From Chloroflexota bacterium (GTDB taxonomy: Bacteria; Chloroflexota; UBA11872): 64,000 nt of DNA. The number at the start of each line of letters is the position of its first letter. The first letter of the stretch is position 1. This document shows positions 24,381-43,229 of this stretch, piece after piece. Under the pieces are notes generated by a model, which saw only the letters and a program-made list of their open reading frames with translations, was not told where the DNA came from and ran no database searches. The stretch spans positions 5,344-69,343 of the forward strand of contig JAPOXD010000053.1 in NCBI GenBank assembly GCA_026707285.1, written 5' to 3'. Made by a program: the position numbers and the translations under genes.

Positions 24381-24410
24381 TTGGAAGTTACTATTGTAAC
24401 GCACTAGGAT
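24381..24410 (+). promoter_or_regulatory. Putative promoter of the packaging module with palindromic operator
   Basis: TTGGAA-18bp-TAGGAT with GTTACTATTGTAAC (24387-24400) in the spacer; AT-rich patch in GC-rich DNA. Confidence 0.65.
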
Positions 24411-24471
24411 AGGGGCTGTAGCACGACGGCGCGCGCTATGCGCACGGCGCCAATGACACCGGGAGGCCCCT

Positions 24472-26154
24472 TTGTCCGAGCTTCGCCCCGACGCGTTGCC
24501 CCCACCGTCCGAGTCTTATGTACAAGAGCTGGAGCAGCACCTGCTGACGGAGTTCGGCGGGCGCAATGCTCGCATCGAGCGGCTGCGGCGGCTGCGGTTC
24601 ATGGAAGAGCCGGTGGATATTCCGGCGGCCTACCGGGCCACCACGCGCGAGGTGCGGACGCCGCTGGCGCGGGAGCAGCTCAAGCGCGTCGTGGGCAGCC
24701 TCACCGCCAACCACCCGACCATCAGCGTGCCGCCGGCCGATCAGACGCCGGAGAGCCGGGCCAACGCCTCGCGCCGCGAGCGCTGGACGGCCGCGGCCCT
24801 GCGGCGCATGAAGAACGACGCCGGACGCGACATCTTCGGCATGTTCGTGGACGCGCTGGTGGCGGACGGCACCGGCGTGATGAAGCTGGTCTACGTGCCC
24901 GAGCGCTGGACGGGCTATCCGCGCCGCGGCGACGGCGGTCCCGAGACCGACTCGAGCTTCAACGAGCGGTCGACCCGGTTCAAGCGATCCGCGCCGTTCC
25001 CGCTGGCCTGGCGCGACGTGGACGTGCTGACCTTCTTCCCCCTGATCGGCGACGACGGCATCGAGGCCTGCCTCGAGATCTCCGAGCGCCCCAAGTGGCT
25101 CATGATGCGGCGCTACGGCCTGGTCGAAGACCGCCGGTCGGGCCGTCTCGCGCCGGCGGGACGCGCGGCGGCGAGCGAAGGTCCCGCGGCCGTCGGCGGC
25201 AGCGTGCGCGTGATCGAATACTGGGACCGCGAGCACTTCGCCTATTTGGTTGACGGCCACCTGGTGCGGCGCGGTCGCCACGCCTACGGCGCGGTGCCCT
25301 ACGTGATGGCGCACGGCAACCAGTCGCCCAGCCGCGACCCGGCCAAGGCCGGCGAGTCGATGCTCGCGTCGGTGGAGTATCTCGTGCCGCTCCTCGACCG
25401 CCTGCTCACCATGAAGCAGAACGCGGTGCACCTCTACGCGTATCCGACGCCCAAGCTCACCGGCTTCGCCGGCAGCGACGGCGCGCTGGGCGAGGACGGC
25501 CGTCCGCCGCCGATCGAGTTCCGGCCGGGCGAGATTCTGCCGCTGTTTCCCGGCGAAGACCTGAGCCTGCTGCAGTGGTCGGGCACGCCGCCCGATCTGG
25601 ACGAGCTGATCGCCCTCACGCGCTCGATGATCGACCAGGCCGGTGTGCCCACGGTGCTGTTCGGCATCGCGCCCGACGGCAACACCAGCGGCTACTACCT
25701 GAACCAGCTGATCAACGCGGCGCGGCTTTCGTTCAACCAGATCACGCGGCACGCCGAGCAGGCGCTGGAGCGCATCGTGCAGCTGGCCTGGCGCCTGGTC
25801 GAGCACCGGGTGCGGGAGACGGTCTACGTCTACGGCGATGAGGACGCCGCGTGGCTGGGCCTGTCGCCGCGCGACGTCAACGGCTACTACGCGGTGCGCG
25901 CCAAGCTGGAGGCCCTGGCCCCGGCGGATGAGATTGCCCAGGGCACCTACGCCGCCAACCTGGTGGCGGCCAAGCTGGCGTCGCGGCGCTGGGCCATGCA
26001 GGAGAAGCTGGGCATCGCCAACGCGGCGGAGATGCAGGCGGAGATCCTGCGCGAGGAGATGCTGGACGACCCGGAGGTCCGGCGCGAGCTGTGGCGTCGC
26101 GATGGCGGCGCGGCGGCGGATATGGACCGTGCGGCAGAGAAGGCGGCATCGTGA
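24472..26154 (+). CDS. Phage-type portal protein (podovirus-like)
   Basis: 560 aa; DALVADGTGVMKL, VIEYWD, HAYGAVPY, TSGYYLNQL patterns recall podoviral portals; adjacent to terminase; GGAGG RBS before TTG. Confidence 0.75.
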   Translation: MSELRPDALPPPSESYVQELEQHLLTEFGGRNARIERLRRLRFMEEPVDIPAAYRATTREVRTPLAREQLKRVVGSLTANHPTISVPPADQTPESRANASRRERWTAAALRRMKNDAGRDIFGMFVDALVADGTGVMKLVYVPERWTGYPRRGDGGPETDSSFNERSTRFKRSAPFPLAWRDVDVLTFFPLIGDDGIEACLEISERPKWLMMRRYGLVEDRRSGRLAPAGRAAASEGPAAVGGSVRVIEYWDREHFAYLVDGHLVRRGRHAYGAVPYVMAHGNQSPSRDPAKAGESMLASVEYLVPLLDRLLTMKQNAVHLYAYPTPKLTGFAGSDGALGEDGRPPPIEFRPGEILPLFPGEDLSLLQWSGTPPDLDELIALTRSMIDQAGVPTVLFGIAPDGNTSGYYLNQLINAARLSFNQITRHAEQALERIVQLAWRLVEHRVRETVYVYGDEDAAWLGLSPRDVNGYYAVRAKLEALAPADEIAQGTYAANLVAAKLASRRWAMQEKLGIANAAEMQAEILREEMLDDPEVRRELWRRDGGAAADMDRAAEKAAS

Positions 26155-26387
26155 CGGCGGCGAGACGGCGGCCGTCGCCGCACGACTTTCCGGCCCGCTT
26201 TCGCACGCTGGCCGAAGAGCACACGGACGAGATCTGTGACGCCGTCATCGCGAAGGCGCGCAAGGGCGAGCGCTGGGCCACCGAGCTGGTGATGCAGTAC
26301 GCCTTCGACCGCTCGGCCGAGGCGTCCGAGGACGCGCTCGTGAACCTGTTGGAGGAGATTCGCGCCCGCCTCGCGCACAGCGCGTGA
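26151..26387 (+). CDS. Putative terminase small subunit-like protein
   Basis: GTG overlaps the portal stop (GTGA); helical VIAKARKGERWATELVMQYAFDR motif; lies directly before terL. Confidence 0.5.
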   Translation: MTAARRRPSPHDFPARFRTLAEEHTDEICDAVIAKARKGERWATELVMQYAFDRSAEASEDALVNLLEEIRARLAHSA

Positions 26388-26391
26388 GGCG

Positions 26392-27663
26392 CTGTGGCGG
26401 CGCGTCGGCTACGCGCCCAGTTCCGAGCAGCGGCAGGCGCACGACTCGCCCGCGCGCATTCGCCTGATCGCCGGCGGTGAGCGCGCCGGCAAGAGCCGCA
26501 GCGCCGCCATGGAGCTATTCGGCCGCTGCCTGGAAGGCCGGCTCTACTGGCTGGTGGGCCCGGACTACGAGCTCTGCCGGCCCGAGTTCCGGTACCTGGC
26601 CGAGGCGTTCGGGGCCATCGGGGCCGTCGACAGCCTGAGCTTTCCCAGCTCGGAGCAGTGCCGGCTGACGCTGCGCACCGGGGCGCGGATCGTGACCAAG
26701 TCGGCCCGCGATCCGGCGCGGCTGGCCGGCGAGGCGCCCGATGGGATCCTGGGCTGCGAGGCGGCCCAGCTGCCGTTTGAGGTCTACTTGCGCCTGCGGG
26801 GCCGCGTGGCGGAGCGCCGGGGCTGGCTCTGGCTGAGCGGCACCTTCGAGGGCTCGCGCGGTTGGTACGCCGACCACTTCAGCGCCTGGCAGGTGGTGAA
26901 CGCCGACGGCGCGGCGTCGTTCTCCATCCCCACCTGGTCCAACCGGACGTTGTTTCCGGGCGGGCGCGCGGACGCCGAGATTGAGGCGCTCGAAGCGACC
27001 TATCCGGCGGCGGTGTTTCGGGAGCGGTTCGGCGGCGTGCCCTGCCCGCCCGCGACGCTGGTGTTTCCCGAGTTCGAGCCGGCGCGGCACGTCGCCGCGG
27101 TCGACCCGGCCACCGTCGAAACTGTCGAGCTTGCCATCGACCCGGGTTACGCCGGCGCGTATGCCGTGCTCGCGGTAACCGAGGCGGCCGGCGTGGCGCG
27201 GGTGATCGACGAGGTCTACCACCGCCGCATGGTTGCCGCCGAAGTCATCGCCGAGTGCCGACGGCGCTGGTGGTGGCCGCGCGTGAGCGGCGGGGTGATC
27301 GACGTCGCCGGACGTCAGCACCACGCCAGCGCCAGCCAGGTCGAGATCTGGCAGGCCCTGGCGGGGTTGCGGCTGCGGTCCCGCCCGGTGCGGATCCAGG
27401 ACGGCATCGATCGGCTGCGCACGTTTCTGCGCGACCCGGCCAGCGGCGAGCCGCGGCTGGTTCTGGCGCCGGCCTGCCGCGCGCTGATGCAGGAATTTGG
27501 CAGCTACCGCTACCACGAAGCGCGGGACGACCGCCCGATTTCGGAGCTGCCGATCGACCGCGACAACCACGCCATCAAGGCGCTGGCCTACTGGCTCTAC
27601 GACCGCTTCGGCCCGGTCGCGCGGCCCCCGCGGTCGTACCGGCCGTTCGCGCTGGTGCGATAG
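26392..27663 (+). CDS. Phage terminase large subunit (no canonical start upstream of Walker A)
   Basis: In-frame Walker A GGERAGKS at 26473-26496 lies upstream of ATG 26509; Walker B-like GILGCEAAQ; RNase H-like LAIDPG, VIDVAG, DRDNHAIKAL. Start given is CTG 26392 (tentative). Confidence 0.85.
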   Translation: MWRRVGYAPSSEQRQAHDSPARIRLIAGGERAGKSRSAAMELFGRCLEGRLYWLVGPDYELCRPEFRYLAEAFGAIGAVDSLSFPSSEQCRLTLRTGARIVTKSARDPARLAGEAPDGILGCEAAQLPFEVYLRLRGRVAERRGWLWLSGTFEGSRGWYADHFSAWQVVNADGAASFSIPTWSNRTLFPGGRADAEIEALEATYPAAVFRERFGGVPCPPATLVFPEFEPARHVAAVDPATVETVELAIDPGYAGAYAVLAVTEAAGVARVIDEVYHRRMVAAEVIAECRRRWWWPRVSGGVIDVAGRQHHASASQVEIWQALAGLRLRSRPVRIQDGIDRLRTFLRDPASGEPRLVLAPACRALMQEFGSYRYHEARDDRPISELPIDRDNHAIKALAYWLYDRFGPVARPPRSYRPFALVR

Positions 27664-27745
27664 CGGCGCCGGCGCAGGGAATCCTGTTTCAGCGCTGTCC
27701 GCTGCTACGATTCGACGCCAGCGCGCGCCGCGGCGAGGGGTCGGG

Positions 27746-28102
27746 ATGGCGAATAACCCGCGTGAGACGAACGAGCTCTCGCTCAAGCTCGACTGGTCGG
27801 GCTTCGAGGAGCTGTCGGTCCACTTTGTGAACCGGTTTGCCGTGCAGCACGACGCGCAGGCCAACGAGTTCTATCTCAACGTCGGCGCGGTGTCGCCGCC
27901 GCTGCTCATGGGGTCCGACGCGGACGTCATGGCCGCCGCCGCCAAGCTGCGGGAACGCGGCACGGTTCCGGTGCATCCGGTGGCCCGCCTGGCCCTGACC
28001 CCGGAGCGCGTGCTCGAGCTGATCCGCGCGTTGCAGACGAACTACCGCAACTATCAGGAGACCCAGGCGCGGCGCCAGGCCGACGCCGACGCTACCGAGT
28101 GA
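27746..28102 (+). CDS. DUF3467-like small protein
   Basis: FVNRFAV...EFYLNVG...VARLALTPERVLELIRAL pattern; ATG 27746 after GAGGGG. Confidence 0.55.
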   Translation: MANNPRETNELSLKLDWSGFEELSVHFVNRFAVQHDAQANEFYLNVGAVSPPLLMGSDADVMAAAAKLRERGTVPVHPVARLALTPERVLELIRALQTNYRNYQETQARRQADADATE

Positions 28103-28122
28103 GCGCCCTCGGGCGGCCGGCC

Positions 28123-29274
28123 CTAGCCGTCGCTTCCGCCTGAGTCGCGTCGGCGGCCTCTGCTCCTCTGAGCCTCCGCCCAACCCGACCGCTCGACGGC
28201 GGCGATCAGTTGGGCCAAAAGGTCCGGATTCACCGCGTAGCGCGTATTCCGACCTTTGCCCGATCGCACGGCGGCGCCACAGGACACCATGTGCGTCAGG
28301 TCCGCGTAGGCGGTGGATGGGGACGCGCCGATCAGGCGCGCGTACATGGAACTGGAGACGGAGCCCGTGTCGATGATGTACGTCAGGCCCAGCGTCTGCC
28401 GCTCGTTCAGACGTGTGCCGAACTCTTCCCGCCAGGCGTCCTGACGCCCGTTGAAGACCACGATGAAGTGTTCAAGCATCGTCGCGGCCGTGCTCAGAGC
28501 GTCGGTGTGAAATGCGGCGAATGGTGTCCCATCGACCTCCGACTGGAAGTCCAGGCCGTGCGTGTCGCGGAGTGCCTGGTAGTAGCTGTCGCGGTCGCGC
28601 CAGATCACCACATTCGGCACCAACATGCCCTCCGCCGACCAACCCGCCTGGTGCAGGATCATGTCGGCCAGGAGACGGGCCGTCCGACCGTTTCCCTCCT
28701 CGAACGGGTGGATCGAGACCAGTCCGGCGTGCGCCAGCGCCGCGATGATCGGCGGGGGATAGCTTTCCTCGGCCACCCATCGCTGGATGTGGGCTACGAG
28801 CTGGTCCATCAGGTCTGGGACCCAAGCCGGCGGGGGCGGGCGGTAGCGGATCTCGCGCGACTCCGCGTCCTCGATCAGGCTCGGTCCCGTGCGGTACTGC
28901 CCACGGCCCCCTGACATCTCCTCCGGCAAGCCCTCGAGGATCAGCGAGTTCATGGCGCGCAGCAGTCCCTGGTCGATCCGTGCCGTCGGGTCCGCCGCCA
29001 GCTGCTCCATCAGCGCATAGGCGCCCCACAGGTTCGTCAGCTCGCGCTCCTCGGGTCGGACCGGATCGCCCTCGCCCGCGAACAGGACGCGGGCCTCTTC
29101 ATAGCCGAGGGGGTTGCCCTCCACCTTCGCCGAGGCGAGCGTGCTCAGATAGCGCGCGCGCTCGCGGAAATAGGGCTCGTAGCCGCCAGGGACCAACGTG
29201 CGGACCTCGTAGAGTCGCCGAAACAGAGAATCCGTGTCGATATCGCCGACATCCGCGGCTAGTGAAAGTTCCAT
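28123..29274 (-). CDS. Fic family protein with C-terminal HTH
   Basis: HPFEEGNGRTARLL Fic motif, SAKVEGN, C-terminal winged-helix (STAYADL...GKGRNTRY). Confidence 0.9.
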   Translation of the reverse strand: MELSLAADVGDIDTDSLFRRLYEVRTLVPGGYEPYFRERARYLSTLASAKVEGNPLGYEEARVLFAGEGDPVRPEERELTNLWGAYALMEQLAADPTARIDQGLLRAMNSLILEGLPEEMSGGRGQYRTGPSLIEDAESREIRYRPPPPAWVPDLMDQLVAHIQRWVAEESYPPPIIAALAHAGLVSIHPFEEGNGRTARLLADMILHQAGWSAEGMLVPNVVIWRDRDSYYQALRDTHGLDFQSEVDGTPFAAFHTDALSTAATMLEHFIVVFNGRQDAWREEFGTRLNERQTLGLTYIIDTGSVSSSMYARLIGASPSTAYADLTHMVSCGAAVRSGKGRNTRYAVNPDLLAQLIAAVERSGWAEAQRSRGRRRDSGGSDG

Positions 29275-29678
29275 ACATGCACCAATACACCACTCCCTTC
29301 CGGCCAATGATGATTCGATAGCCACGGTCTGTCAAGGGAATAATCCATTGGTCCAATGCGATATTCCATTAGCGGAGTGCCCGATCTCGGACCGTCGGTA
29401 GCGGGGCGCCTACCGAATCCGCTGGCGCGCGTGGGTGAAGCCGGTCCGCGGGCTGGAGTCCGCGGGATTGGCGCACGCCTCGGCCACATGCTGGCGAGTG
29501 CGCACCGGGCGCGGCCATACTCAGTCGCACCGTCGGTTGCGGCGACAATCCGATTCGACTCCCGTTTGCGCGAGCGATTCCGCGCGGCATGCTGGTCTCC
29601 GGGCGCACTGGCACCCTGGCGGCGCGATGGCGGAGCTTGAATCGGTCGCCCGTTGACGCAAGCCCTGGCGGTGGCGCC

Positions 29679-31136
29679 ATGGAGCAGCGCTCGCCGCGAC
29701 TCGATCTAGCTCGCGCGGCGGTGCTGGCGCTGCTGGCGGGCTTGATCTATGTCCTCTCCTCGGGGGGCCACGCCTACAGCGTGGACGAGATCACCAACTA
29801 CGCTTCGGCCCGGGCGCTGGTTGAAACGGGCAGTCCCGACCTGTCCGGCGAGCAGCCGTTTCCCCGCGAGCAGCTGCTGACGCTGCGGCACCCGTCGACG
29901 GAGCGGACCACCGGCCGGTATGGCCTGCTGTCGTGGGCGGGAATGTCGCCCGCCTATCTCCTTGCGAGCTGGACCAACTCGCTGCCGCCGGCCCCGTCGC
30001 CGACGTTTCCCCAGCCGAGCGCGGTGCGGCCGGTGGCCGCGCTGCTCTACGGGCCGCCGATCGCCGCCCTGCTCGTGGGTGCAACGTTTCTGCTGGGGCG
30101 CAATCTCGGCTTGCGACCCCGCTATGCCGCCGTGGCGGCAATGCTGCTGGCGTTTGCCAGCCCCCTCTGGGTGTACGCCCAGGGACTCGCCAACATCCCG
30201 CTCGCCGCGCTGTTCAGCGTGTTGGCGTTTGTGGCGGTCACCGGCTCGCGCTCAGGAGCCGGAGTCTGGGCCGTTGCCGGCGGCCTCACCGGACTTGCCG
30301 CGCTGACGCGGCCGGAGTTCGTGGTTCTCGCGCCGGCGGTCGGTGTCTTGGGCCTGTTGAGCGAGGGGCGCCTGTCGCGGGTCGGTCTGACCCGCGGGCT
30401 GGCGTTTGCCGCGGCGTGGGCCGTCGTGGCCATCCCGGGCATCGGCCTCTGGAACCTCTACCGAACCGGCGACTTCTTTGATGTCGGCTATCGGACGGCG
30501 TCGATCCTCTGGCAAACGGACCGCGCGTATATCGGCATGTTCGGCGTGCTGGCCAGTCCCAGCTTTGGGCTGCTCGTTTTCATGCCCGTCGCCGCCGTGG
30601 GGCTGTGGGGGATCCTCGGCGCGACGTCACGCCGGCCGGTCTGGCTGGTTATGTTGGCGCTGACCCTGCTGGCGGTCGTCGGCTATGGGTCATTCGACGA
30701 CTGGTTCGGCGGCGTCTCCTGGGGACCTCGATACCTCACCACCGTCACGCCATTCCTGGCGCTCGGCGTGGGACTGGCGATGCAGTCGGCGTCGGCGACC
30801 CTGGGCATGCGCCTGGCGACGCTTGGCCTCGCGGCGTGGTCGACCGGCCTGTCGGTGCTGGGCGTGCTGTTCGACTACCAGTCGGGCTGGCGCAATCTCT
30901 GGGACCACGGGGCGCGCCCGGAGCAGATCGAGTGGAATCCGCACTTCTCACTCATCGGCGCCCACCTGCGGCTGGCCCGCCAGTGGGTCGATGGTCTGAT
31001 CGGGCCGGATCTCTTCGTGGTGCACCGGCTGGGGCCGTGGACAATGGCGGTGCTGGCGGCGGGATTGCTGGTGGTTCTCGGCCTCGCCTGGGCGATCGAG
31101 ACCCGCGGCGCCGGCTGGCGCCGCCGCAGCGGCTGA
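29679..31136 (+). CDS. Polytopic membrane protein, GT-C/PMT-like glycosyltransferase
   Basis: SVDE acidic motif in the first external loop, many TM helices, WFGGVSWGPRYL. Confidence 0.65.
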   Translation: MEQRSPRLDLARAAVLALLAGLIYVLSSGGHAYSVDEITNYASARALVETGSPDLSGEQPFPREQLLTLRHPSTERTTGRYGLLSWAGMSPAYLLASWTNSLPPAPSPTFPQPSAVRPVAALLYGPPIAALLVGATFLLGRNLGLRPRYAAVAAMLLAFASPLWVYAQGLANIPLAALFSVLAFVAVTGSRSGAGVWAVAGGLTGLAALTRPEFVVLAPAVGVLGLLSEGRLSRVGLTRGLAFAAAWAVVAIPGIGLWNLYRTGDFFDVGYRTASILWQTDRAYIGMFGVLASPSFGLLVFMPVAAVGLWGILGATSRRPVWLVMLALTLLAVVGYGSFDDWFGGVSWGPRYLTTVTPFLALGVGLAMQSASATLGMRLATLGLAAWSTGLSVLGVLFDYQSGWRNLWDHGARPEQIEWNPHFSLIGAHLRLARQWVDGLIGPDLFVVHRLGPWTMAVLAAGLLVVLGLAWAIETRGAGWRRRSG

Positions 31137-31170
31137 ACGACGTGGAGTTCGGGCCGCGCCACGGGGTTGT

Positions 31171-32601
31171 TCACTCCGGCGGCTGGCGCCCCATTCGGCG
31201 TGCCGCGAACAGCCCGAAACCAGGCGGCCCTGGTCGGACGCTCTCCACGAGGACGAGTGGGATCAGCGCGATCGCCGTCAGCGCGACGGCCGCGTCCGCC
31301 ACCAGCAGCCACCAGCGTGGATCGGTGGTGAGGAGCCGCCCGATCGCGGCCAGCTTGCTGAGCGTGGCCTCGGGCGTGCTGTAGGCAACAAACTCCAGGT
31401 TTTGATCCGGCCAGGCCAACTCGCCGTTGATCCAGAGCCGACCGTCCTCGTAGCGGTTGCCATTGGTCAGGCCAACGCCAAGCTCCGCGCCGGGCGCGAC
31501 ATCGGCCGCGACTTGGGCGGCCAGCGGCTGGCCCTCAGCGGCGGTGAGCGGCGGTTGGAGCTCAATCATCTTCCAGCGCGGACAGTCGCCCACCGGGACC
31601 TCGATCGACCCTTCGGCCAGCGTCCGGTCGAGCGTGTCAAGGGGTGCGACGCGCACCGTGATCGCTCCCCCGTGACCGTCCCACTCGCAATTGAAGAGGA
31701 GGAGCTCGAGGCTCTGCACGGGCGTGGCCGGCATGCGGAACTCCTGGACCAGGGCTTCCTGGCGGCCGAGGGTCACCTCGAAGGCGCCGGAACGCGTATA
31801 GGGGGCCGGCGCCTCGATCAGCGGCGCACGGAAGAGGAACGCGAGCGCAAGGCTTCCGAGAATGGCCAGCGCCGCGATCGATCCGACGAGCGACCGACGC
31901 CAGCGGCCGCCGAAGAGGGGATACGGCGGCGGGCGACCATTGCGCAGCACGCCGACCGCGCTGAGTCCGATCAGCAGGGTCCCGCTGAACTCCGCAGTTT
32001 CTTCGAGCACGTATCCCAGCGCCACCGCGCCACCGGTGGGCATCCAGCGCCCGATCGCCTCCTGCACCAGCACAAACACCCAGCAGGCGATGCCAAGCGT
32101 CAGCGGCGCGCGGGCCGCCCGCACGCTCAGACCCTTGCGGACAAAGAACCACATCGCCAGCACGAACACGGCGACCAGCGGACTCACCAGCACGGGCCAC
32201 GGCAGGCCGGTGCGTCCGGCCTGATCGAAGAGGGAGATTGGTCCACGGTCCTTGAACTCGGCCAACTCCTCGAAGGTCAAGGCCGCGGCCGTCAGGGTCA
32301 GTGCGGCCCATCCGGCGACCGCAATCCAGCCGGCCGAGCGGCGGAAGCTGACGGCAGCGGCGGCGAGCGCAAGCGCCGTCACGCAAGCCAATCCGGCGGC
32401 CGACACGGAGTTGGCAATCGTGCCTTCGTTGTCGGCGTCCAGCCGGCCCAGGGTGGGGTCCCAGGGCGGAAGCAGCTCCGGGAATGCCAGGCTGAAGAGA
32501 TGCGTGGCGGCATATCCGCCCCACCAGAAGGCCACCACGCCCAACAGCAGCACACGTGCCGTCCACTCCAACACGCGCCGGACGGCGATTCCCGTCATCA
32601 A
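31171..32601 (-). CDS. Multi-pass membrane protein with extracellular beta domain (paralog of 45138-46589)
   Basis: EGTIANS, FEELAE, EETAEF; QEALVQEFRMP and GRLWINGxLAWPDQ shared with 45138-46589. Confidence 0.7.
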   Translation of the reverse strand: MMTGIAVRRVLEWTARVLLLGVVAFWWGGYAATHLFSLAFPELLPPWDPTLGRLDADNEGTIANSVSAAGLACVTALALAAAAVSFRRSAGWIAVAGWAALTLTAAALTFEELAEFKDRGPISLFDQAGRTGLPWPVLVSPLVAVFVLAMWFFVRKGLSVRAARAPLTLGIACWVFVLVQEAIGRWMPTGGAVALGYVLEETAEFSGTLLIGLSAVGVLRNGRPPPYPLFGGRWRRSLVGSIAALAILGSLALAFLFRAPLIEAPAPYTRSGAFEVTLGRQEALVQEFRMPATPVQSLELLLFNCEWDGHGGAITVRVAPLDTLDRTLAEGSIEVPVGDCPRWKMIELQPPLTAAEGQPLAAQVAADVAPGAELGVGLTNGNRYEDGRLWINGELAWPDQNLEFVAYSTPEATLSKLAAIGRLLTTDPRWWLLVADAAVALTAIALIPLVLVESVRPGPPGFGLFAARRMGRQPPE

Positions 32602-34899: not shown

Positions 34900-34914
34900 G
34901 GTGTCTCTCCAATA

Positions 34915-35053: not shown

Positions 35054-35082
35054 TTGCATACGTTACTAAAGTTACGTAGAGT
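35054..35082 (+). promoter_or_regulatory. Putative promoter of the capsid-tail-lysis module with the same operator as the portal promoter
   Basis: TTGCAT-17bp-TAGAGT with GTTACTAAAGTTAC (35062-35075) in the spacer. Confidence 0.65.
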
Positions 35083-35453: not shown

Positions 35454-36308
35454 ATGGCGATTACGACGGGCGCCTCGATCGGAGACGTCGTCGACACGGT
35501 GATCGCTGAAGCGCGCCGGACCCAGTTGCACCGCACGGTCATGGAGCCGCTGGTGCGCACCTACCGCGTGAGTCGCGGTGCCGGCGACACGCTGGAGATT
35601 CCCAAGTTCGGCACGGTCACGGCCGGCGCCCTCACCGAGGGCGTGGATATGACTAACCCGCAGACGCTGGCGACCACCAAGGTCACGATCACGCCGGCCG
35701 AGGTTGGCGCGCAGATCGTGATCACGGACCGGGCGCTGCGCACCGCCCGCGAGGACATGGCGCGCGCCGCCGGCCGCGTGCTCGGCGACGCGGTGGCCAA
35801 GAAGCTGGACGCCGACTTGCTGGGGCTGCTCGACGGCTTCGGCACCTCGCTGGGCGCGGCCGGAGAGTCCATCTCCATGGGTCACTTGCGCGCGGCGGTG
35901 TCGCGGCTGCACGCGGCCGCCGAGCCGGCGCCCATGCCCTACTCCGCGGTGCTGCATCCCTACCAGGCGCATGACCTGGCGGCGGACCTTGCGCCCGTCG
36001 GCACCTATCCGGTGCCCAGCGGCATCTCGCAGACGGTGCTCGAGAACCACTGGGTCGGTCGCGCCTTCGGGGTCGACCTCTTCCAGGCCGGCAACCTGCC
36101 GGTGGATGGCGAAGACGATGCCAAGGGCGGTGTGTTTTCGCGCGAGGCGCTGGTCCTGGTGATCTTCAAGGACTGGGCCGTGGAGCGCGAGCGCGACGCC
36201 TCGCTGCGGGCCTGGGAGCTCAACGTCGTGGCCGACTACGGCTACGCCGAGTACCAGGACGCCTGGGGCGTGGAGATGTACTTCGACGCCGCGGCGCCCA
36301 GCAGCTAG
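35454..36308 (+). CDS. Major capsid protein (HK97-fold, P22/N4-gp56-like family)
   Basis: GDTLEIPKFG, LTEGVD, VTITPAEVG, AKKLDADLL, AVLHPYQAHDL, VERERDASLRAWE; AAAGGAG RBS before ATG 35454. Confidence 0.88.
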   Translation: MAITTGASIGDVVDTVIAEARRTQLHRTVMEPLVRTYRVSRGAGDTLEIPKFGTVTAGALTEGVDMTNPQTLATTKVTITPAEVGAQIVITDRALRTAREDMARAAGRVLGDAVAKKLDADLLGLLDGFGTSLGAAGESISMGHLRAAVSRLHAAAEPAPMPYSAVLHPYQAHDLAADLAPVGTYPVPSGISQTVLENHWVGRAFGVDLFQAGNLPVDGEDDAKGGVFSREALVLVIFKDWAVERERDASLRAWELNVVADYGYAEYQDAWGVEMYFDAAAPSS

Positions 36309-36360
36309 GCCGCGGGAGCCCCGGCCGAGATCGCATGCAACGACTTCGGCGCGGCGCGGC

Positions 36361-36468
36361 GCAGGGGCGGTTCACGAACCGCCCCTGCCTCCTGGTAGGG
36401 CCGCCCCTCGTGGGCGCCCGTGGCTGGGGCACGGGGCACACGCGGGCGGCCACAAGGTCCGCCCCTAC
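36361..36468. repeat. GTAG-family REP elements after the capsid gene (possible mRNA stabiliser/attenuator)
   Basis: Hairpin GCAGGGGCGGTTC-AC-GAACCGCCCCTGC plus inverted pair GTAGGG...CCCCTAC. Confidence 0.75.
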
Positions 36469-36517
36469 GGGAGTGACGACCGGCGCTGCCTGGCGCCGGC
36501 GAAGAAGGGACGTGTGA

Positions 36518-36745
36518 ATGTCTGGTCCGATCATCTGGATTCCGCGGGAGCGCCGGGCGCGGCTGGTGCACCGGTTTCGCGGCGCGACGCCGCATTCGCC
36601 GGTGGTGGTGGTGACCCCCGACGCGAGCGAGGCTGCCGACGCGGCGGCGGCGGCGCTCGAACGCCAGCGCCGGCGTTTGGCCGACCGCGGCAGCGCCTTC
36701 AGCGAGCGCCTCGACGCCCAGCGGCCCCAATGGCGCGACGCTTGA
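36518..36745 (+). CDS. Small hypothetical protein in the virion module
   Basis: ATG after GAAGGGA; fills the gap between capsid and adaptor genes. Confidence 0.45.
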   Translation: MSGPIIWIPRERRARLVHRFRGATPHSPVVVVTPDASEAADAAAAALERQRRRLADRGSAFSERLDAQRPQWRDA

Positions 36746-36752
36746 TGGGTGG

Positions 36753-37565
36753 GTGGTCGTGAGCGTCACGCGAGCGGCGCTGCGGCAGGCCGTGGCCGCG
36801 CGGATGATGCGCACGGTGGTCGGCGTGGCCAGCGGCGGGTCCACCGTGGCGCTGGCCGACCCGGACCGGCTCCAAGACGCCGGCGCGTCGGACGACGCGT
36901 GGACCGGCGCCTGGCTGCACATCACCGCGGGGGCCAATGCGGGCGAGGTCCGGCGCGTGACGGTCTACGACCCGGCGTCGGGGTCGGTCACGGTCAATCG
37001 GCCCTTTGCACAGCCCATCGACGGGACGTCGGCCTACGAGCTGCTGCGCCTGCTCTCGCCGGCGGAGCTGCATCAGGCCATTGACGACACGCTGACGCGC
37101 TGCTGGCGCCGAACGCTGGCCGACCTGACGTCGGTCGCCGACGCTCAGCGGCAGTTCCCGCTGCCGGCCTGGGTCACTCGACGCCAGCAGGTCGTCGAGG
37201 TTTGGGAGCGTCGCGGCGAGCACCTGCGCGCGGTGGATTGGTGGCGGCTCAGGCGACGTCCGGTTGCCAGCCCTTCGCCGTTCTGGTTGGAGGTTGGGCA
37301 CGCGCCGGGCGGGGCGTTGGTGGTCGAGGCGCTGCGTCCCTACGAGGCTCTGGCCAACGACCAGGGCATCACCGACGCCCCGGCTGACTGGGTAGTGGCG
37401 GGGGCGCTGGCGCACGCCTATCGGCGCCTGCGCCGGGACGCGCCGGCGGCGGATGTGGACCGATATGCCGCGCTGCAGTGGGAAGCCGCGCACGAGTTTC
37501 AGCGGCTCTCCCGGCTCTACCAGCCCCGAGCCGTGCGGCGGGTGCAGCTCGGGGAGCGGCTGTAG
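36753..37565 (+). CDS. Putative head-tail adaptor protein
   Basis: TRAALRQAVA N-terminal helix, ELHQAIDDTL, position after the capsid gene. Confidence 0.6.
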   Translation: MVVSVTRAALRQAVAARMMRTVVGVASGGSTVALADPDRLQDAGASDDAWTGAWLHITAGANAGEVRRVTVYDPASGSVTVNRPFAQPIDGTSAYELLRLLSPAELHQAIDDTLTRCWRRTLADLTSVADAQRQFPLPAWVTRRQQVVEVWERRGEHLRAVDWWRLRRRPVASPSPFWLEVGHAPGGALVVEALRPYEALANDQGITDAPADWVVAGALAHAYRRLRRDAPAADVDRYAALQWEAAHEFQRLSRLYQPRAVRRVQLGERL

Positions 37566-39896
37566 ATGTCCACGTCGCGGCGATCCCCCTTCCCCTATGA
37601 CTGCGTGCTGCATGGGACGGGCCTGATGCTGGACGACGACGGCGGCCTGGCCTGGCGCGAGCGACGCCTCGAGTCGCTGCCGCCGCCGATCTCGGGGCCG
37701 GCCCGGGCCTACGCCCAGTTTCCCTCCGAGCATGAGGCCGCCTGGACCACCGGCGACCTGACGGGCGGCTACGGCGCGAGCACGTCAACGGCGGAGGGCG
37801 GACGGCAGTACGCCCACGGCTTCGTGGACGCGCGCTTTCCCAATCAGATCATGTTGCCACCGGCCCTCACCGAGAGCCGCGTCGGCGGGGACGGCACGGT
37901 GCGCGGCCACTTCGAGTTGGGCGGCGTGCTGTACGCGCTGATCGGCTCGGCCGTCTACCAATCAACCGACGGCGCCCGCTGGACGCTGGCGCACCAGTTT
38001 GGCGACGGCGACACGCCGGTTTCGGCGGCTGTCTTCCAGGGCGCGGCGGCGGCGCCTCACGCGTTCGTCGCGGTCGGCGGCGGGCCCGGTGACGGTCCCT
38101 ATTGGACGTTCGACGGCAAGGCGTGGACGCCCCATCCGGGAGTGCAGGCGAAGCCGACCGCCGTGCTTGCGACGACCGACGGCGGCGTGACCTACACCGA
38201 TCAGACGGAGTCGGCCGAGGTTCGCCTGAGCGGCTCGGCCGCGGGCGGCGCCTGGCTGCTCCTGGGATCCGACGCACCGTTCGACAGCGTGCGACTGGAC
38301 CCGCGCGAGCGAATCAACCGGGGCGCCGCAACGCTCACGGCCGAGTTTTGGACGGGCGCTGCGTGGGAGCCTGTCAGTGACTGGGTCGACCGGACGATCG
38401 TCGAGTCCGCCACGCTGGGGCGCGCCGGCGCGGGTGAGTTCACGGAGCCCGTCACGTGGCGTCCTTCACTCATCGAGGACATCCAAGCCTTCTGGCTGCG
38501 CCTGTCGGCGACCGCGCCACTGGACTCCAGGGTCCGGCTGCACGGCATTGCCGTGCACCAGCCCCGCAAGGCCGACCGGTTCCTCGTGGTCGGAGATGAA
38601 CTGTTGCGCTCGTCGTCGGAATCAGGCGTCCCCCGGATTTCGCGCTCGGTGGACGGCGGCGACGACGCGGCGTGGACGTCTGGCGAGCCGGTCGGCGGCC
38701 CGGGTCACGCCGTGACGGCGCTGGTGTCACTGGGCGACATGCCTTACGCGGTCACGACCGACGGGCTGTATCGCATTCGACCATCCGGTGAGGCGGCGTT
38801 CGAGGCGTCGTGGCCACGTCCGGCGGCACTGCGCGATCGGAGTGACGGCCGGGGAGGCGCGGTGTGGCGCGGGGCGTGGTGGCTGCCATCGAAGGAGGGG
38901 CTCTATCGCTTCGCGCCGGGCGCGTTCGAGCTGGTGGGGCCCGAGACGCTGCCGGACAACGACTCGGCGGTTCGCGGCCGCATCACCGCCTGCGCGGGCG
39001 ACGCCTTTTTCTTGTACGCCGCCCTCCGCAGCGACCAGGGCGTCACCTATCTGCTGTGCTACGACGCGGAGCGCGGCGCCTGGCATCCCCTGGCCGACCT
39101 TGGCCGACGCGAATGCCGCCATATGTGGGTCTCGGACGTTCCTGGGCCAAACCCGCGGCTGTACCTCGGGCTGGACGACGACATTGGCGCGATCATCCTG
39201 CCGCGGCACACCGCCAATCCCTTGCACGACCCGCGGTGCCGCTTTGCCCCGTCGGGCGAGCTGCGGCTGTCGCGCTTCCACGGCAGCCCCGCCGCCCGAC
39301 GCACCGCGTTTCTCGGGCTGAACATCGACGGCGCACGGCTGGGGCCAGACGCCTTTGTCGACGCCGCCTACCGGCTGGATGGGCACGGGGCTTATGCGCC
39401 GCTCGGTCGCTTCGCCACCGCCTCGGGCCAGCGGGTCGACTTCGGTTCGGCGGTGGCCGGCACTTCGATCGATCTGCGCCTGCGGCTCACGACACACAGC
39501 GACCGCGCCACGCCGGTGATCCGGGCCGTCACGCTGGCCTACGCGGCGCGCACCGGCTTCCGGCGCGTCTTTGACTTCCGCGTGCGGCTTGCCGACCGGC
39601 TCTCGCTGCGAGACGGAGGCCGGGACCGGCGGGCGGCGCGCGACATCAAGCGGGCGCTCATGGCGGCGGCGGCCTCGGAGCTGCCTGTGGTGCTCACCAC
39701 CCCGGACGGCGAGGCGCTGGAAGTGCTGGTGCGCGAGGCCGAGGTCCGCGCGACGGGCCGGCCGCTCGCATGGGCCATGCACATCTCCGCCACGGAGTAC
39801 CGGCCGACCGCTGCCCATGGCCGGCATCGCCGCCTCGCGACCTATCGCCATGACCACCTGGCGGCCTATACGCACCGCCAGATCAGCCAGCTCTAA
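37566..39896 (+). CDS. Putative short-tail nozzle/tail structural protein (beta-propeller-like)
   Basis: 776 aa rich in beta-strand and W/G motifs (STDG..W); translationally adjacent to the adaptor; C-terminal 8-aa His repeats. Confidence 0.6.
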   Translation: MSTSRRSPFPYDCVLHGTGLMLDDDGGLAWRERRLESLPPPISGPARAYAQFPSEHEAAWTTGDLTGGYGASTSTAEGGRQYAHGFVDARFPNQIMLPPALTESRVGGDGTVRGHFELGGVLYALIGSAVYQSTDGARWTLAHQFGDGDTPVSAAVFQGAAAAPHAFVAVGGGPGDGPYWTFDGKAWTPHPGVQAKPTAVLATTDGGVTYTDQTESAEVRLSGSAAGGAWLLLGSDAPFDSVRLDPRERINRGAATLTAEFWTGAAWEPVSDWVDRTIVESATLGRAGAGEFTEPVTWRPSLIEDIQAFWLRLSATAPLDSRVRLHGIAVHQPRKADRFLVVGDELLRSSSESGVPRISRSVDGGDDAAWTSGEPVGGPGHAVTALVSLGDMPYAVTTDGLYRIRPSGEAAFEASWPRPAALRDRSDGRGGAVWRGAWWLPSKEGLYRFAPGAFELVGPETLPDNDSAVRGRITACAGDAFFLYAALRSDQGVTYLLCYDAERGAWHPLADLGRRECRHMWVSDVPGPNPRLYLGLDDDIGAIILPRHTANPLHDPRCRFAPSGELRLSRFHGSPAARRTAFLGLNIDGARLGPDAFVDAAYRLDGHGAYAPLGRFATASGQRVDFGSAVAGTSIDLRLRLTTHSDRATPVIRAVTLAYAARTGFRRVFDFRVRLADRLSLRDGGRDRRAARDIKRALMAAAASELPVVLTTPDGEALEVLVREAEVRATGRPLAWAMHISATEYRPTAAHGRHRRLATYRHDHLAAYTHRQISQL

Positions 39897-39906
39897 AGGA
39901 GGACCG

Positions 39907-40587
39907 ATGCCAACGACGACGCTGAATCTCAACCTCACCAAGCCGCTCCCCCCGGAGCGGTATGACGTGGGGGGCGTTAACGCCAACGCAGACGCAGTCG
40001 ACGCGGCCTTCGATGCCGCCTCCGGGCATCGGCATGACGGCACGGCAGGGCAAGGACCACCCCTGGACAGCGACGCGCTCGCCGATGGGGCGGTCACGGA
40101 CCCGAAATTGGCGCCCGGCGCGGTGGTCACCGACGCCTTGGCGGACGCAGCGGTGACCGCGGACAAGCTGGCCGACGCCGCCGTGACGGCGGCGAAGCTG
40201 GCGCCCAATGTCGGCGGCATCGCACTGGCCAGCGTCCAGGACGGCGCCGGGCGGAACGACACGCGCGTTTCCGCCCTCCGCGCGGAAGCCGGTTGGGGTT
40301 TCATTTCGCTCGCCGCGCTGCAGAGCGACGAGAGGGCTATCACCTTCGAATCGGCCTTCGGCTCGGCGCCCATCGTGTTCGTGTCGCCCCTTGGGGCGCA
40401 TGTCGGCGCCAGCCCCCCTGAGTCCATTGACGACTTTGGCGATTACCACGCGAACCACCAGCGCTTTTCGAGCGTGTTTGCCAAGGACATCACGGCCAGT
40501 GGCTTCACCGCCGAAGCCATCCGCGCGACCGCGGCGAATGGACAGTGGGCAGGCTTTGCCTGGATGGCGCTTGGGGTGAGCGCCTAG
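39907..40587 (+). CDS. Tail fibre-like protein
   Basis: N-terminal NLNLTKP...NADAVD, GHRHDG, 10-aa LADxAVTxxK repeats, C-terminal ITFESAFGSAP...ITASGF...WMALG (gp53/H-lectin-like); AAAGGAGG RBS. Confidence 0.78.
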   Translation: MPTTTLNLNLTKPLPPERYDVGGVNANADAVDAAFDAASGHRHDGTAGQGPPLDSDALADGAVTDPKLAPGAVVTDALADAAVTADKLADAAVTAAKLAPNVGGIALASVQDGAGRNDTRVSALRAEAGWGFISLAALQSDERAITFESAFGSAPIVFVSPLGAHVGASPPESIDDFGDYHANHQRFSSVFAKDITASGFTAEAIRATAANGQWAGFAWMALGVSA

Positions 40588-41600
40588 TGCCGCGCCAGGC
40601 CCCCGACCCCACGCCCCTCCTGGGCGTGCACTTCTGGAATCCGGCGCGGACGCCGGGCTATCCCGTGCCGACCCTCTTTGTCGAGCACGTGTATACGCAT
40701 CCTGGGGGCGACCGGCAGCCCCATTGGCGGGAAATGGCGAGCCGCTGCCGCGTGCTGCGCGACGCCGGGCATCGGGTCCTGCTCAAGGTCAAGTACCGAG
40801 CCGGCGTCGATCAGCCACGGACCGGGGCAGAGCTGGACACGTATCTCCACGGGCTGGAGGCGCTGGCGCCGAAATTTGGCGGCATCGACGTGACCTTCGG
40901 CAACGAGCCCAACTGGCGGCGCTCCGAGGCCGACGACTCCAGCGTGAGCCCCGCCTGGATGGCGCGGGTGTTCAACGGTGCCGGCAACGAGCCGAGCGAT
41001 CCGTGGAACGCCCTCCAGGTGTGGCGGACGCACGCCGCATCCCGCTGCCGCTTCTTCGTCACGCCCACGGGGCCGTTTGCCCCGCGCGGCGGACGGCCCA
41101 AGGCCGCGGTGGAGCAATCGCCGTGGGCGCGCTACACGGCGGAGTTTTGGGAGCGGTGCCGGGACGCGGCGCAAACGGCCTGGTCGCGGCGCTTCCAGGG
41201 CGTGGTCCTGCACGCCTACGCACGCACCGGGCCCAACGGCGACGACCACGGGGGACGGCACGAGCCGTGGCGCGACCCGCGCGACCGCCTGGAGCGGCGG
41301 TGGGGATCCAACGTCTTGCAGACGTGGGACGAGACCCTGCGCACCGTCGGGCTGGCGCGCAAGCCGGTCATCATCGCGGAATACAACGCGCGCACCGACG
41401 CGCCCTCCGCCGCGGCCTATCCGCCGGGCCTGCTGCCGAACGCATTTGCCTACGCCTGCGCCGTGTTCGGGCGACGCCTCGAGGGTCTGGCCTGGTTCGT
41501 GGATGCCAACGGCGACGGCCATTGGCGCGATGAAGCCTTGACCGATGGCGTGGGGCGGATGGCGGAGGCCGACGCCGACTTTCGACGGATCTGGGCGTGA
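40587..41600 (+). CDS. Clan GH-A-like glycoside hydrolase
   Basis: FGNEPN acid/base motif, LHAY, VIIAEYN nucleophile motif, LAWF; GTG overlaps the previous stop. Confidence 0.65.
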   Translation: MPRQAPDPTPLLGVHFWNPARTPGYPVPTLFVEHVYTHPGGDRQPHWREMASRCRVLRDAGHRVLLKVKYRAGVDQPRTGAELDTYLHGLEALAPKFGGIDVTFGNEPNWRRSEADDSSVSPAWMARVFNGAGNEPSDPWNALQVWRTHAASRCRFFVTPTGPFAPRGGRPKAAVEQSPWARYTAEFWERCRDAAQTAWSRRFQGVVLHAYARTGPNGDDHGGRHEPWRDPRDRLERRWGSNVLQTWDETLRTVGLARKPVIIAEYNARTDAPSAAAYPPGLLPNAFAYACAVFGRRLEGLAWFVDANGDGHWRDEALTDGVGRMAEADADFRRIWA

Positions 41601-41845
41601 CAAGCGGCGCACGCCCGACGCCCGACGGCAACGGCCGCCTCCTGGCGCGCATCGACGAGCGCACGGCGTCGATCCTGCGCGAGGTGGCGCAGTTGCGGGC
41701 GGACCTGGCGGCGCACAAGACCGAGTCGCGCGCGACCTACGTGACGCGGGTGGAGTTTCGGCCCATCCGCGGTCTGATCTACGGCCTGGTGGGTCTGACC
41801 CTGACGAGCGTGGGCGGCGGCGTGCTGGCCCTGGTGCTGCGATGA
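41597..41845 (+). CDS. Small membrane protein (XhlA/holin-like)
   Basis: Coiled N-terminus LARIDERT, YVTRVEF, single C-terminal TM helix; precedes the endolysin. Confidence 0.65.
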   Translation: MTSGARPTPDGNGRLLARIDERTASILREVAQLRADLAAHKTESRATYVTRVEFRPIRGLIYGLVGLTLTSVGGGVLALVLR

Positions 41846-41861
41846 CCGCCGAGGCGGGCTG

Positions 41862-42869
41862 ATGGCCTATCTGCCGCCGCTCGACGGTGTCATTCGCGTG
41901 ACGTCGGCGTTCGGCCTCGACCGTGGCAGCTACCGCCACGGCGGACTGGACCTGGCGCTGCAACGGGAGTCGGTGTACCGCCGCCCGGTGAAGGCGCCGG
42001 CGGCGGGGACGATTCTGGCGGTCTGGACGACGGACCGGCCCAGCACGCGGGACGCGACGCTGCGGGACGGGTTTCCCTACGGCAACGCCGTGGCGCTGCG
42101 CGACGCCGGGGGCGTGCTGTGGCGCCTGCTGCACTTCGACGAGCCCCCGACGGTTCGCGTCGGCGAGCGCGTCGCGGCCGGCCAGACGCTCGGCCTCTGC
42201 GACTCCACCGGCAACAGCACCGGGCACCACGTGCACCTGGACGCCTCACTGCTGGACGATATCGACCCGGCGACCTTCCGCGTACGGGGCCCGCGGGTCG
42301 ACCCGCTGCGCCTCTACGCGGTCGCCCTGGCCCGTGACGTGGGCTACGACCCGGCGGTGTTTCGGCGGCAAATCAGGGCGGAAAGCAACTGGAACCCGCT
42401 GGCCGTGAGTCGCGCGGGGGCCGAGGGCCTGGCGCAGATCATCCCCCGCTGGCACCCGGCCATGCGCGGGCGCACGTTCGACCCGTTCGCGTCGCTGGAC
42501 TATGCCGCGCGGCTGATGGCGGCGCACGTGGATCACCGGAACGGCGACTACCGCGAGGCGCTGGCGGACTACAACACGGGCCGTGGGTCAAGCGGCGCGT
42601 TCCGTGCGCAGGGCTACCGCTACGCCGACACGATTTTGAAGGGCTTGGACATGGCGCGAATGGCGGAGATCGAGGCGCTGCGGCAGGACCGCGACGCCAA
42701 CCACAGCCGCAAGCTCGCGGCGCTGGCGCACCTCGGCGAGGTGATCCAGGCGGCGCGCAGGGCGGGTGAAACCGCGTTCCGCCCGGAGGACTGGCGACGG
42801 GTCATGACCGCCGAGCGGTTCTATCACGACCCCATGGCGCGTCCCGATCAGGCGACCGGCGCGGGGTAA
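41862..42869 (+). CDS. Two-domain endolysin: M23 peptidase plus SLT lytic transglycosylase
   Basis: TSAFG, HGGLD, TGNSTGHHVHLD (M23); AESNWNPLAVSRAGAEGLAQ, ALADYNTG (SLT). Confidence 0.9.
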   Translation: MAYLPPLDGVIRVTSAFGLDRGSYRHGGLDLALQRESVYRRPVKAPAAGTILAVWTTDRPSTRDATLRDGFPYGNAVALRDAGGVLWRLLHFDEPPTVRVGERVAAGQTLGLCDSTGNSTGHHVHLDASLLDDIDPATFRVRGPRVDPLRLYAVALARDVGYDPAVFRRQIRAESNWNPLAVSRAGAEGLAQIIPRWHPAMRGRTFDPFASLDYAARLMAAHVDHRNGDYREALADYNTGRGSSGAFRAQGYRYADTILKGLDMARMAEIEALRQDRDANHSRKLAALAHLGEVIQAARRAGETAFRPEDWRRVMTAERFYHDPMARPDQATGAG

Positions 42870-42983
42870 TGGAAATCAAGGACGCCCGCCCGCTGCGGAG
42901 TTTCGGCGGTCGGGCTTGGCGAGATGTGACCCCGTACCTGATACGGGGCAAGCGATGGAGGCAGTTGGATGAAGGGACAGCCG

Positions 42984-43229
42984 ATGACGACGACTTACAG
43001 CCTGAAGCTGGGTGTGCTGCGGCGCTTCGCGCGCATCGTGAGCGCGGCATTCGTGGCCGGTGGCGTACCCGGCGCGGTGGCCGCCGTGCAGAGCCCCGAA
43101 ATCTACCAGCTTGGGACGCAGCTGCTGGGTGCGGCGGGAGTGGCCGTGGTCGCCGGGACGCTCGCGGCGCTGGACAAGGCCGTGCGCGGCCGACACGGCT
43201 CGTGGCTGGGGATGCTGCGACTGAGTTAG
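42984..43229 (+). CDS. Putative holin
   Basis: 81 aa with two hydrophobic segments and basic ends; follows the endolysin. Confidence 0.6.
   Translation: MTTTYSLKLGVLRRFARIVSAAFVAGGVPGAVAAVQSPEIYQLGTQLLGAAGVAVVAGTLAALDKAVRGRHGSWLGMLRLS

Follow-up and report, generated by a model that had tools for sequence, protein, structure and literature searches.

Does a bacterium of the phylum Chloroflexota carry a gene transfer agent (GTA) derived from a short-tailed phage? The question is raised by a 64,000-nucleotide stretch of DNA, hereafter the window, from a Chloroflexota bacterium (assembly GCA_026707285.1, contig JAPOXD010000053.1, positions 5,344 to 69,343). An earlier note, made from the letters alone, had described a split set of podovirus-like virion genes between positions 24381 and 43229 of the window and interpreted it as a domesticated short-tailed particle system and a candidate GTA. 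Our analyses support this interpretation, and no refutation test that was run overturned it. The observation beneath it was confirmed in part: the gene set stood, and several gene labels and reading frames did not. Very probably the set has been domesticated and is inherited vertically. Continued production of DNA-filled particles of the GTA type seems rather likely to us, judging from its genes, and is held with clearly less assurance.

The window belongs to contig C15 of a 3.2-Mb metagenome-assembled genome (MAG) of ~69% G+C. Because of this high G+C content most listed open reading frames (ORFs) are spurious, and genes were therefore called by third-position G+C (GC3). Thirteen of the 20 public runs holding the stretch are labelled as sponge metagenome, and all 32 relatives from the species-genome collection (32/32) are Chloroflexota or Chloroflexi MAGs, in line with the lineage guessed in the note. 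The virion set lies in two modules, as had been described: genes for a portal, a terS-like protein and the large terminase (terL), then, after ~7 kb of host genes, the genes from the capsid to a holin-like protein. All are on the + strand, and neighbours abut or overlap. Caudoviricete-type head, packaging and tail proteins thus appear to be encoded. The GT2 gene placed to the left of the set and the Sua5/TsaC gene placed to its right were both verified, and the flanking genes are housekeeping or metabolic ones (RecJ, RelA/SpoT, HisI, GH127, GT2, DEAD helicase, TsaC and CofD).

The distribution of the set is that of a chromosomal trait. Of the family's 37 species genomes, 34 have the capsid gene, always in single copy; it is also present in one of 19 genomes of the sister family and in none of 41 from the other four families of the class. 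Among 24 family genomes, 22 have the portal gene, 22 have terL and 21 have the nozzle gene, the extra miss being G007, whose capsid gene lies 690 bases from a contig end. Cluster genes including portal, capsid and nozzle have no paralogue in their own genome. Patchy presence or a variable insertion site, named in the note as signs of an ordinary prophage, was not seen: GH127 stands to the left of the portal gene in all four genera of the family (g1 to g4, the window belonging to g1), g1, g3 and g4 share a sulfatase gene (60-67% identity) in the interval from terL to capsid, and an enolase-superfamily gene follows terL in g2 and g3. Since host genes are conserved in place across genera, the split is ancestral and not a recent accident. 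On contigs from another sponge metagenome (X8 record 18), terL likewise continues into the host-gene island. The arrangement has nonetheless shifted by lineage. The gap between terL and capsid varies from 1.7 to 10 kb. G010 has its modules inverted, with 37 kb separating them; in G014 the separation is 28 kb. The portal gene is 7.4 kb away from terL in G016, and the lysin gene is 0.69-1.77 Mb from the capsid gene in four of five complete g3 genomes checked.

These data bear on whether the set could be a live temperate phage, or a group of related prophages integrating at one site, which we regard as very improbable. Two relatives speak for it. The first is the sister-family case, a phage-like pattern in one of 19 genomes: a compact, uninterrupted relative on a 14-kb contig of the MAG G056 (L068, G056:C35:1-14190), with 51% identity in the portal and 65% in the capsid. 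Its order is portal, a 196-aa gene, capsid, small genes, adaptor-like gene, a 648-aa nozzle, fibre and lysin. No terL separates its portal and capsid genes, and the arrangement could be that of the ancestral phage. The second is the viral contig L069, which has four genes in common with the set at 22-39% identity (terL 39%, portal 22%, the N-terminus of the adaptor-like protein 33%); a PHROG scan of ten of its proteins gave no match. A screen of 2.9 million viral contigs yielded it and one other capsid relative, both at 36-37%. The best capsid identity in 50,697 phage records was 28-37%, and portal and nozzle had no match there. Near-identical free phages, which the note had proposed to look for, were thus absent, and no phage relative exceeded 39% identity. 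Sequence joints in contigs from public reads were considered as traces of excision and rejected, as their sides are only ~21-29 letters long; we took them for metagenome noise.

The features of an integrated temperate prophage are also missing from the window. As the note had stated, neither integrase nor repressor nor replication gene is visible: the ~55 window ORFs scanned contain no integrase, recombinase, repressor or replication domain, hence no lysogeny or replication module; no tRNA was found in the window, and no flanking direct repeat (att) was better than chance. With neither a replication nor an integration module, and with a locus too dispersed to be packaged whole, the set would be incapable of self-propagation. 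The idea of a live phage further conflicts with the host metabolic genes that interrupt the set at positions kept from genus to genus, with the modules being inverted or far apart in several genomes, with the near-universal single copy, and with the agreement of gene trees at genus level described below.

Selection on the set was estimated within the genus as the ratio of nonsynonymous to synonymous substitution rates (dN/dS) by the method of Nei and Gojobori (NG86), with terL read in the frame of 26377. Values near 1, expected in the note for a decayed prophage, were not seen for the core genes. The portal (0.06-0.10), terL (0.05-0.11) and capsid (0.06-0.11) genes are level with relA (0.04-0.12) and recJ (0.06-0.20). 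The adaptor-like (0.14-0.28), nozzle (0.23-0.34), lysin (0.17-0.24) and holin-like (0-0.17) genes may be set beside GH127 (0.17-0.22), sulfatase (0.15-0.26) and the neighbouring metabolic genes (0.13-0.26). The capsid protein is 83-98% identical across the family, and between genera it is 83-86% identical, compared with 65-70% for RelA; the nozzle is 49-54% identical between genera. TerL and capsid thus appear to evolve slowly and to be distinct from their viral homologues (≤39% identity).

Trees were built for 28 of the 33 genomes with element sequences, namely those that also have the RelA locus. The tree of capsid plus nozzle and that of RelA, the host marker used, have the same genus-level topology. 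Within g1 they agree wherever both have resolution; G006 and G011 pair in the RelA tree and are unresolved in the element tree. Pairwise distances of element and RelA correlate with an r of 0.98. The comparison with the host tree suggested in the note therefore came out in favour of common descent at genus level and within g1, and against it in part of g3. Taken together, the placement, copy number and phylogeny of the set are consistent with vertical transmission in the cell genome.

Turning to the genes themselves, the portal protein (560 aa, 24472-26154, +) was recognized through its family. The direct match, to phrog_156, is weak (E 0.01), and no portal Pfam matches the protein of the window, so that the assignment is transitive. 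A profile of 11 orthologues collected 1197 representatives at E≤0.001, and in an alignment of 48 members (the window protein and 47 sampled matches) nine carry portal Pfams, i.e. P22_portal in six, SPP1_portal in two and SU10_portal in one, and none carries any other family. In the ESM Atlas, the protein falls with viral 'portal' clusters at 0.97-0.98. The portal claim is thereby borne out. Other approaches were uninformative: an AlphaFold2 (AF2) model from the 11 orthologues was unusable (predicted local distance difference test, pLDDT, 36.7), an hhalign comparison with the portal of phage HTVC111P gave a probability of 0.1, and profile searches against PDB sequences with the nozzle, the portal, the adaptor-like protein and the deep portal alignment yielded nothing significant, the best portal row having an E of 0.39.

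A small terS-like gene (78 aa, 26151-26387, +) overlaps the portal stop with its start and terL with its end. The note was right that such a gene stands beside portal and terL; the ORF it had chosen, 25838-26239, is a wrong-frame artefact. The protein has no family match, its dN/dS is 0.03-0.35, and the gene is kept 5' of terL in all four genera as well as in a paralogous pair of g3. Prediction of a complex with TerL gave an ipSAE of 0.39, compared with 0.00 for the best control, and a passing ipSAE of at most 0.60 is wrong more often than right unless the interaction is likely beforehand; the model offers weak support for binding of the terS-like protein to TerL. The large terminase (26362-27663, +) had been correctly named. 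It matches phrog_5653 (1e-8) and shares 27% identity with actinophage terminases across 91-94% of the 439-aa reading. Neither its Walker A stretch, GGERAGKS, nor the acidic residues of its nuclease vary among eight orthologues. In g3, a second, solitary pair of terS-like and terL genes with its own promoter was found at another locus (L063:9705-11244, L064:9034-10573, L065:9029-10568, L066:9401-10955); from species to species this second TerL is 82-97% alike, and its identity to the TerL of the window is 64-67%. Short terL fragments were seen too.

The second module begins with an HK97-fold major capsid protein of 284 aa (35454-36308, +; PF25209, E 3.6e-10; phrog_267, 7e-14; PF05065). The capsid claim holds, with the gene start corrected to 35454. 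The frame open from 35106 was rejected as capsid coding, frames being of only 287 aa in G012 and G014. The transcript would thus have a leader of ~365 nt (35090-35453), in which RNAalifold on 21 sequences predicted a conserved structured RNA (35270-35387, +) of nested helices and a loop with an invariant GGA. Twelve of its 28 pairs show compensatory changes, many of them representing a single event between g1 and the rest. Paired cells amount to 96.2%, vs 42-49% when partners are slid, and none of 500 shuffles scored as high. A covariance model of the RNA has one match per genome, always 5' of the capsid gene, in five of five genomes; the G012 leader, which was outside the model, matches weakly (E 0.09). 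No Rfam match was obtained over 24000-44000 at E≤1, so the leader RNA has no Rfam family. The loop GGA resembles AGGAG, the capsid ribosome-binding site. The structure could be a riboswitch, a protein-binding element or a translation-control element.

Both modules start with near-consensus sigma-70-type promoter-like sites within A+T-rich islands. The site 5' of the portal gene (24386-24420, +), read from the sequence, has TTGGAA and TAGGAT separated by an 18-nt spacer with the dyad GTTAC-N4-GTAAC; that 5' of the capsid gene (35050-35083, +) has TTGCAT and TAGAGT and a 17-nt spacer with GTTAC-N4-GTTAC. The former is thus a true inverted repeat and the latter a direct repeat. The spacers of both sites hold GTTAC-N4/5-GT(A/T)AC in g1, g2 and g4, and the upstream layout of the portal gene recurs in other genera. 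A search of the whole 3.2-Mb genome with the dyad pattern matched these two promoter sites and nothing else; as the pattern was derived from the two sites, this count shows privacy, not significance. A motif of g3, GTGTACA(A/C)T, was considered as an operator and dropped, as it can equally be read as an extended -10, and the dyad is therefore claimed for g1, g2 and g4 only. These observations hint that the two modules are co-regulated through a common private dyad.

Directly 3' of the capsid gene lies a palindromic hairpin of the repetitive extragenic palindromic (REP) type, GGGGCGGTTCGCGAACCGCCCC (36363-36384, no strand assigned). The note had placed several host REP elements inside module 2; one such hairpin was verified, of a genome-wide family with 19 forward and 18 reverse matches at ≤3 mismatches, compared with 0 and 0 for a control pattern. 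It could end or stabilize the capsid message.

The virion protein encoded between capsid and nozzle (270 aa, 36753-37565, +) has no family match, and the label 'adaptor' given to it reflects its position only. Among 12 aligned orthologues, eight have 406-408 aa and four ~270 aa, the latter being those of three of the seven other g1 loci and the window. Comparison with L013:11294-12514 shows that a clean in-frame deletion has removed a central domain, ~135 aa long, from the window protein. The next gene codes for a 776-aa protein (37566-39896, +). Its AF2 model is poor (pLDDT 50.9), with a central beta-propeller that structure comparison matched at Z up to 18.7. Ten of the 11 named rows among the top 50 matches in BFVD are P22 gp10, stabilization protein or tail tubular protein B, with E from 3.7e-16 to 1.5e-9 and template modelling (TM) scores of only 0.15-0.34, and the ESM Atlas gave PF11134 at only 0.81. 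Based on this model, the protein is a candidate gp10/gp12-like nozzle or tail hub. No tape-measure or tail-tube family occurs among the cluster genes, in agreement with the note, and the only tape-measure PHROG matches fall on the M23 domain of the lysin. Thus, the P22/SU10-type relatives of the portal, the gp10/gp12-like nozzle and the lack of tape-measure and tail-tube matches support, not strongly, the short tail proposed in the note.

The fibre gene (227 aa, 39904-40587, +), whose frame was set by substitution periodicity, was correctly recognized: it matches phrog_892 (3e-8) and phrog_28766, and its C-terminal H-type lectin domain (H_lectin) scores 24.8 bits vs a cut-off of 24. The N-terminal half has a dN/dS of 0.14-0.24. 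Between species within one genus, dN is 0.45-0.71 in the H-lectin half (40261-40587), compared with 0.06-0.10 in the N-terminal half. Such divergence is as expected of a receptor-binding tip.

Lysis functions are represented by a protein with M23 peptidase and SLT transglycosylase domains (41862-42869, +; PF01551, 6.7e-12; PF01464, 2e-12; 23 PHROGs), as had been claimed. One of its matches is phrog_342, 'internal virion protein with endolysin domain', and the protein may be either a lysin or an internal virion lytic protein. The holin of the note is indeed represented by a holin-like gene (86 aa, 42969-43229, +), recognized from two hydrophobic segments in its translation and its conserved position and having no family match; it adjoins the M23+SLT gene in g1, g4 and G013.

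The same genes would serve a particle made for another purpose than gene transfer, such as a PBSX-like killer that packages undeliverable DNA, or a device for lysis or DNA release in competition or in the sponge matrix. PBSX is itself cited as a GTA-like packager of 13.4-kb fragments (PMC12946183). The genomic evidence for such a particle is the same as that for a GTA and does not tell delivery from killing, and the fast-diverging receptor-binding half of the fibre, together with nozzle alleles that seem mobile within g3, fits an arms race over targets. On the other side, a full DNA-packaging motor maintained at housekeeping-level constraint would be costly if the DNA had no role; otherwise nothing here speaks against this explanation, which we nevertheless consider unlikely.

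Several observations weigh against a functional, vertically inherited GTA. The system is known here from genes alone. Neither a scaffold gene nor one for a maturation protease was found: there is no gene between the host island and the capsid promoter that could be a scaffold beside the capsid, and for the 196-aa gene of the G056 relative the window's own genome offers just one weak match, of 56 residues, on a different contig (C55), other scaffold families not having been searched genome-wide. The nozzle call rests on a low-confidence model, and support for the terS-TerL complex is only weak. In all seven g1 genomes looked at (7/7), GCG replaces the ancestral GTG start of terL, leaving no canonical in-frame start before codon 56 (region 26344-26509). 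As terL overlaps the terS-like ORF in the +1 frame in g1, it possibly begins through a frameshift fusion with that ORF, or at a CTG start. Three family members lack the set; their genomes are of 2.0-2.1 Mb and their RelA is the most divergent (59-63% identity). The complete genome G012 yielded no lysin. The portal gene is split by a TGA in G006 (1/23), the capsid gene is frameshifted in G005 (1/23), and the lysin genes of G001, G017, G019 and the second copy of G045 have in-frame stops, although these broken copies are possibly MAG errors. Lastly, G018 and G020 of g3 are sisters in the RelA tree with a support of 100 and stand apart in the element tree, a conflict that, measured on this one host marker, points to allele exchange between close species.

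Part of this list would be expected if the set were an old defective prophage, whose genes were kept singly for unrelated host uses, for instance a lysin that remodels the wall or a capsid that forms a compartment, with no complete particle being made. The missing scaffold and protease, the lost start codon of terL in g1, the relocation of the lysin in g3 and its absence from G012, the few broken copies, and the weak constraint on a small membrane ORF of the second module (dN/dS 0.44-1.31) all fit this explanation. However, at least eight interacting virion and packaging genes were retained together across four genera with dN/dS as low as that of relA, the catalytic motifs of the terminase are invariant, and the domain loss in the adaptor-like gene was in frame and left the gene unbroken. 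Had single genes been co-opted, portal, terminase, capsid, nozzle and fibre would not be expected to be kept jointly. We thus find a defective prophage somewhat less plausible still than a particle without transfer function.

Domestication with retained particle production would account for the data as follows. A phage-derived set would have entered the common ancestor of one Chloroflexota family and been inherited since as ordinary chromosomal DNA. The replication and integration functions of the phage would have been lost, and host genes and rearrangements would have split the set into two to four loci, the genes being kept under strong purifying selection despite this splitting. A host regulator may fire both promoters in a subpopulation of cells, with capsid output further set by the structured ~365-nt leader and the REP hairpin. 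Portal, capsid, adaptor-like protein, nozzle and lectin-tipped fibre would assemble into a short-tailed particle, and the terS-like protein and TerL, whose ATPase and nuclease motifs are intact, would fill the heads with DNA. Because the locus neither excises nor replicates, this would be mainly host DNA. The M23+SLT lysin and the holin-like protein would then release the particles. Such a system would be a GTA in the wide sense.

The window has further features in and around the set. The host-gene island between the modules (27664-34899, mixed strands, mostly -) varies in content between genomes. Its Fic (28123-29325, -) and sulfatase (32784-34259, -) genes, both named in the note, were borne out by Pfam, and the presumed GT-C gene was not: the 515-aa product of 29589-31136 (+) has no family match. 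A 476-aa protein of unknown function (31171-32601, -) has no Pfam match; its family has three copies in the genome at 43% identity (31171-32601 and 45138-46589 of the window, and C56:102521-105531), and two of the three lie beside sulfatase genes, its paralogues adjoining another sulfatase. A VapC/VapB-like pair (34262-34899, -) was read by eye. Within the second module, a small conserved ORF (75 aa, 36518-36745, +) was found by tblastn in all four genera at 47-99% identity, with dN/dS mostly 0.02-0.10. The gene at 40545-41600 (+), described as a GH-A hydrolase, has no Pfam or PHROG match and ten unnamed homologues in 5.8 billion proteins; its product is an orphan of ~333-351 aa, present at this place in g1 only, with dN/dS of 0.15-0.23. 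The small membrane protein that follows is placed in the frame 41597-41845 (+) and not 41545-41862; it has a C-terminal hydrophobic helix, and the gene call, based on GC3 frame and translation, is uncertain. To the right of the set, a decayed partial copy of the C-termini of lysin and holin (44752-45135, +; repeat family D1) was detected by tblastn and blastn (86% over 315 nt) and has an in-frame stop. The related locus L014 has two extra ORFs between lysin and holin. Rearrangement is thus under way at this end of the cluster. In the downstream genes of other genera, PHROG and Pfam detected only the fibre C-terminal domain and MR/MLE enzymes.

A wider proposal can be made more tentatively, as possible rather than probable: that the set represents an independent origin of GTAs, podovirus-derived, multi-locus and family-wide in sponge-symbiont Chloroflexota, which would be switched on via two private operators and a capsid leader resembling a riboswitch, in which the second terS-terL pair of g3 could change the DNA that is packaged, and which would rank among the main routes by which uncultured sponge symbionts exchange genes. 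As these symbionts cannot be grown, a built-in DNA-shuttling particle would, if real, help to explain their common adaptive genes, such as sulfatases. The locus supplies a family-wide gene list, two promoters and a leader RNA as testable items.

How does the set compare with known systems? It shares with the podovirus modules of P22, SU10 and T7 the relatives of P22_portal and SU10_portal, a tentative likeness to gp10 and tail tubular protein B, and a phrog_342-type lytic protein. It differs from them in having no scaffold gene found and no recognizable ejection proteins, in its order, portal-terS-terL in place of terS-terL-portal, and in an identity of at most 39% to any listed phage. The nearest capsids in the phage collection are those of the Pelagibacter phages HTVC111P, 112P, 026P and 202P and of DSL-LC06, at 34-37% over 93-98% of the protein. 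Unlike the set described here, these phages have ~30-kb genomes with tape-measure and replication genes, and HTVC111P and DSL-LC06 matched none of the 23 window proteins queried besides the capsid.

GTAs of known genetic basis are described as a handful, most of them alphaproteobacterial (PMC9662315, PMC12946183). No GTA was known for Chloroflexota to the author of the earlier note, and none was found here: the papers listed on GTAs and Chloroflexi describe no such element in their titles and the opening lines of their abstracts, and those listed on prophages of sponge Chloroflexota do not deal with one. The short-tailed, split kind is less new than had been assumed. FpGTA of Faecalibacterium, reported in 2026 as a two-operon GTA-like element, 'most likely podovirus-like', and called the first of that morphology (PMC12946183), makes a podovirus-like split GTA-like element a known kind. 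As reported there, FpGTA resembles our set in being GTA-like, outside the Alphaproteobacteria and conserved across species, those of a genus in its case (PMC12946183). Its two operons, one for head and packaging and the other for further structural and lysis genes, recall the split seen here, a likeness of description only (PMC12946183). Whereas the set is known from its genes alone, the report on FpGTA gives particle-DNA evidence, with short random host fragments (PMC12946183). Our set further differs from FpGTA in phylum and habitat, in the host metabolic genes inside it and in a lysin >0.6 Mb away in one genus.

In the published definition, GTAs are viriforms that descend vertically, do not self-propagate, have genes for phage-like particles and evolve slowly (PMC9662315). 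Judged from the genomes, the set shows these traits. The set resembles the RcGTA-type agents (Rhodogtaviriformidae) and BaGTA, as described there, in being caudoviricete-derived, vertically inherited and multi-locus, with no self-replication, structural, packaging and lysis genes only, and slowly evolving TerL and capsid (PMC9662315). It differs from the RcGTA type in that a candidate nozzle-type protein is present and no tape measure or tail tube was found. RcGTA-type agents and BaGTA have long non-contractile tails with a tape measure. The set described here would be an independent domestication, in another phylum than theirs, and, if it is a DNA-shuttling particle, the domestication of GTAs recurs from short-tailed phages.

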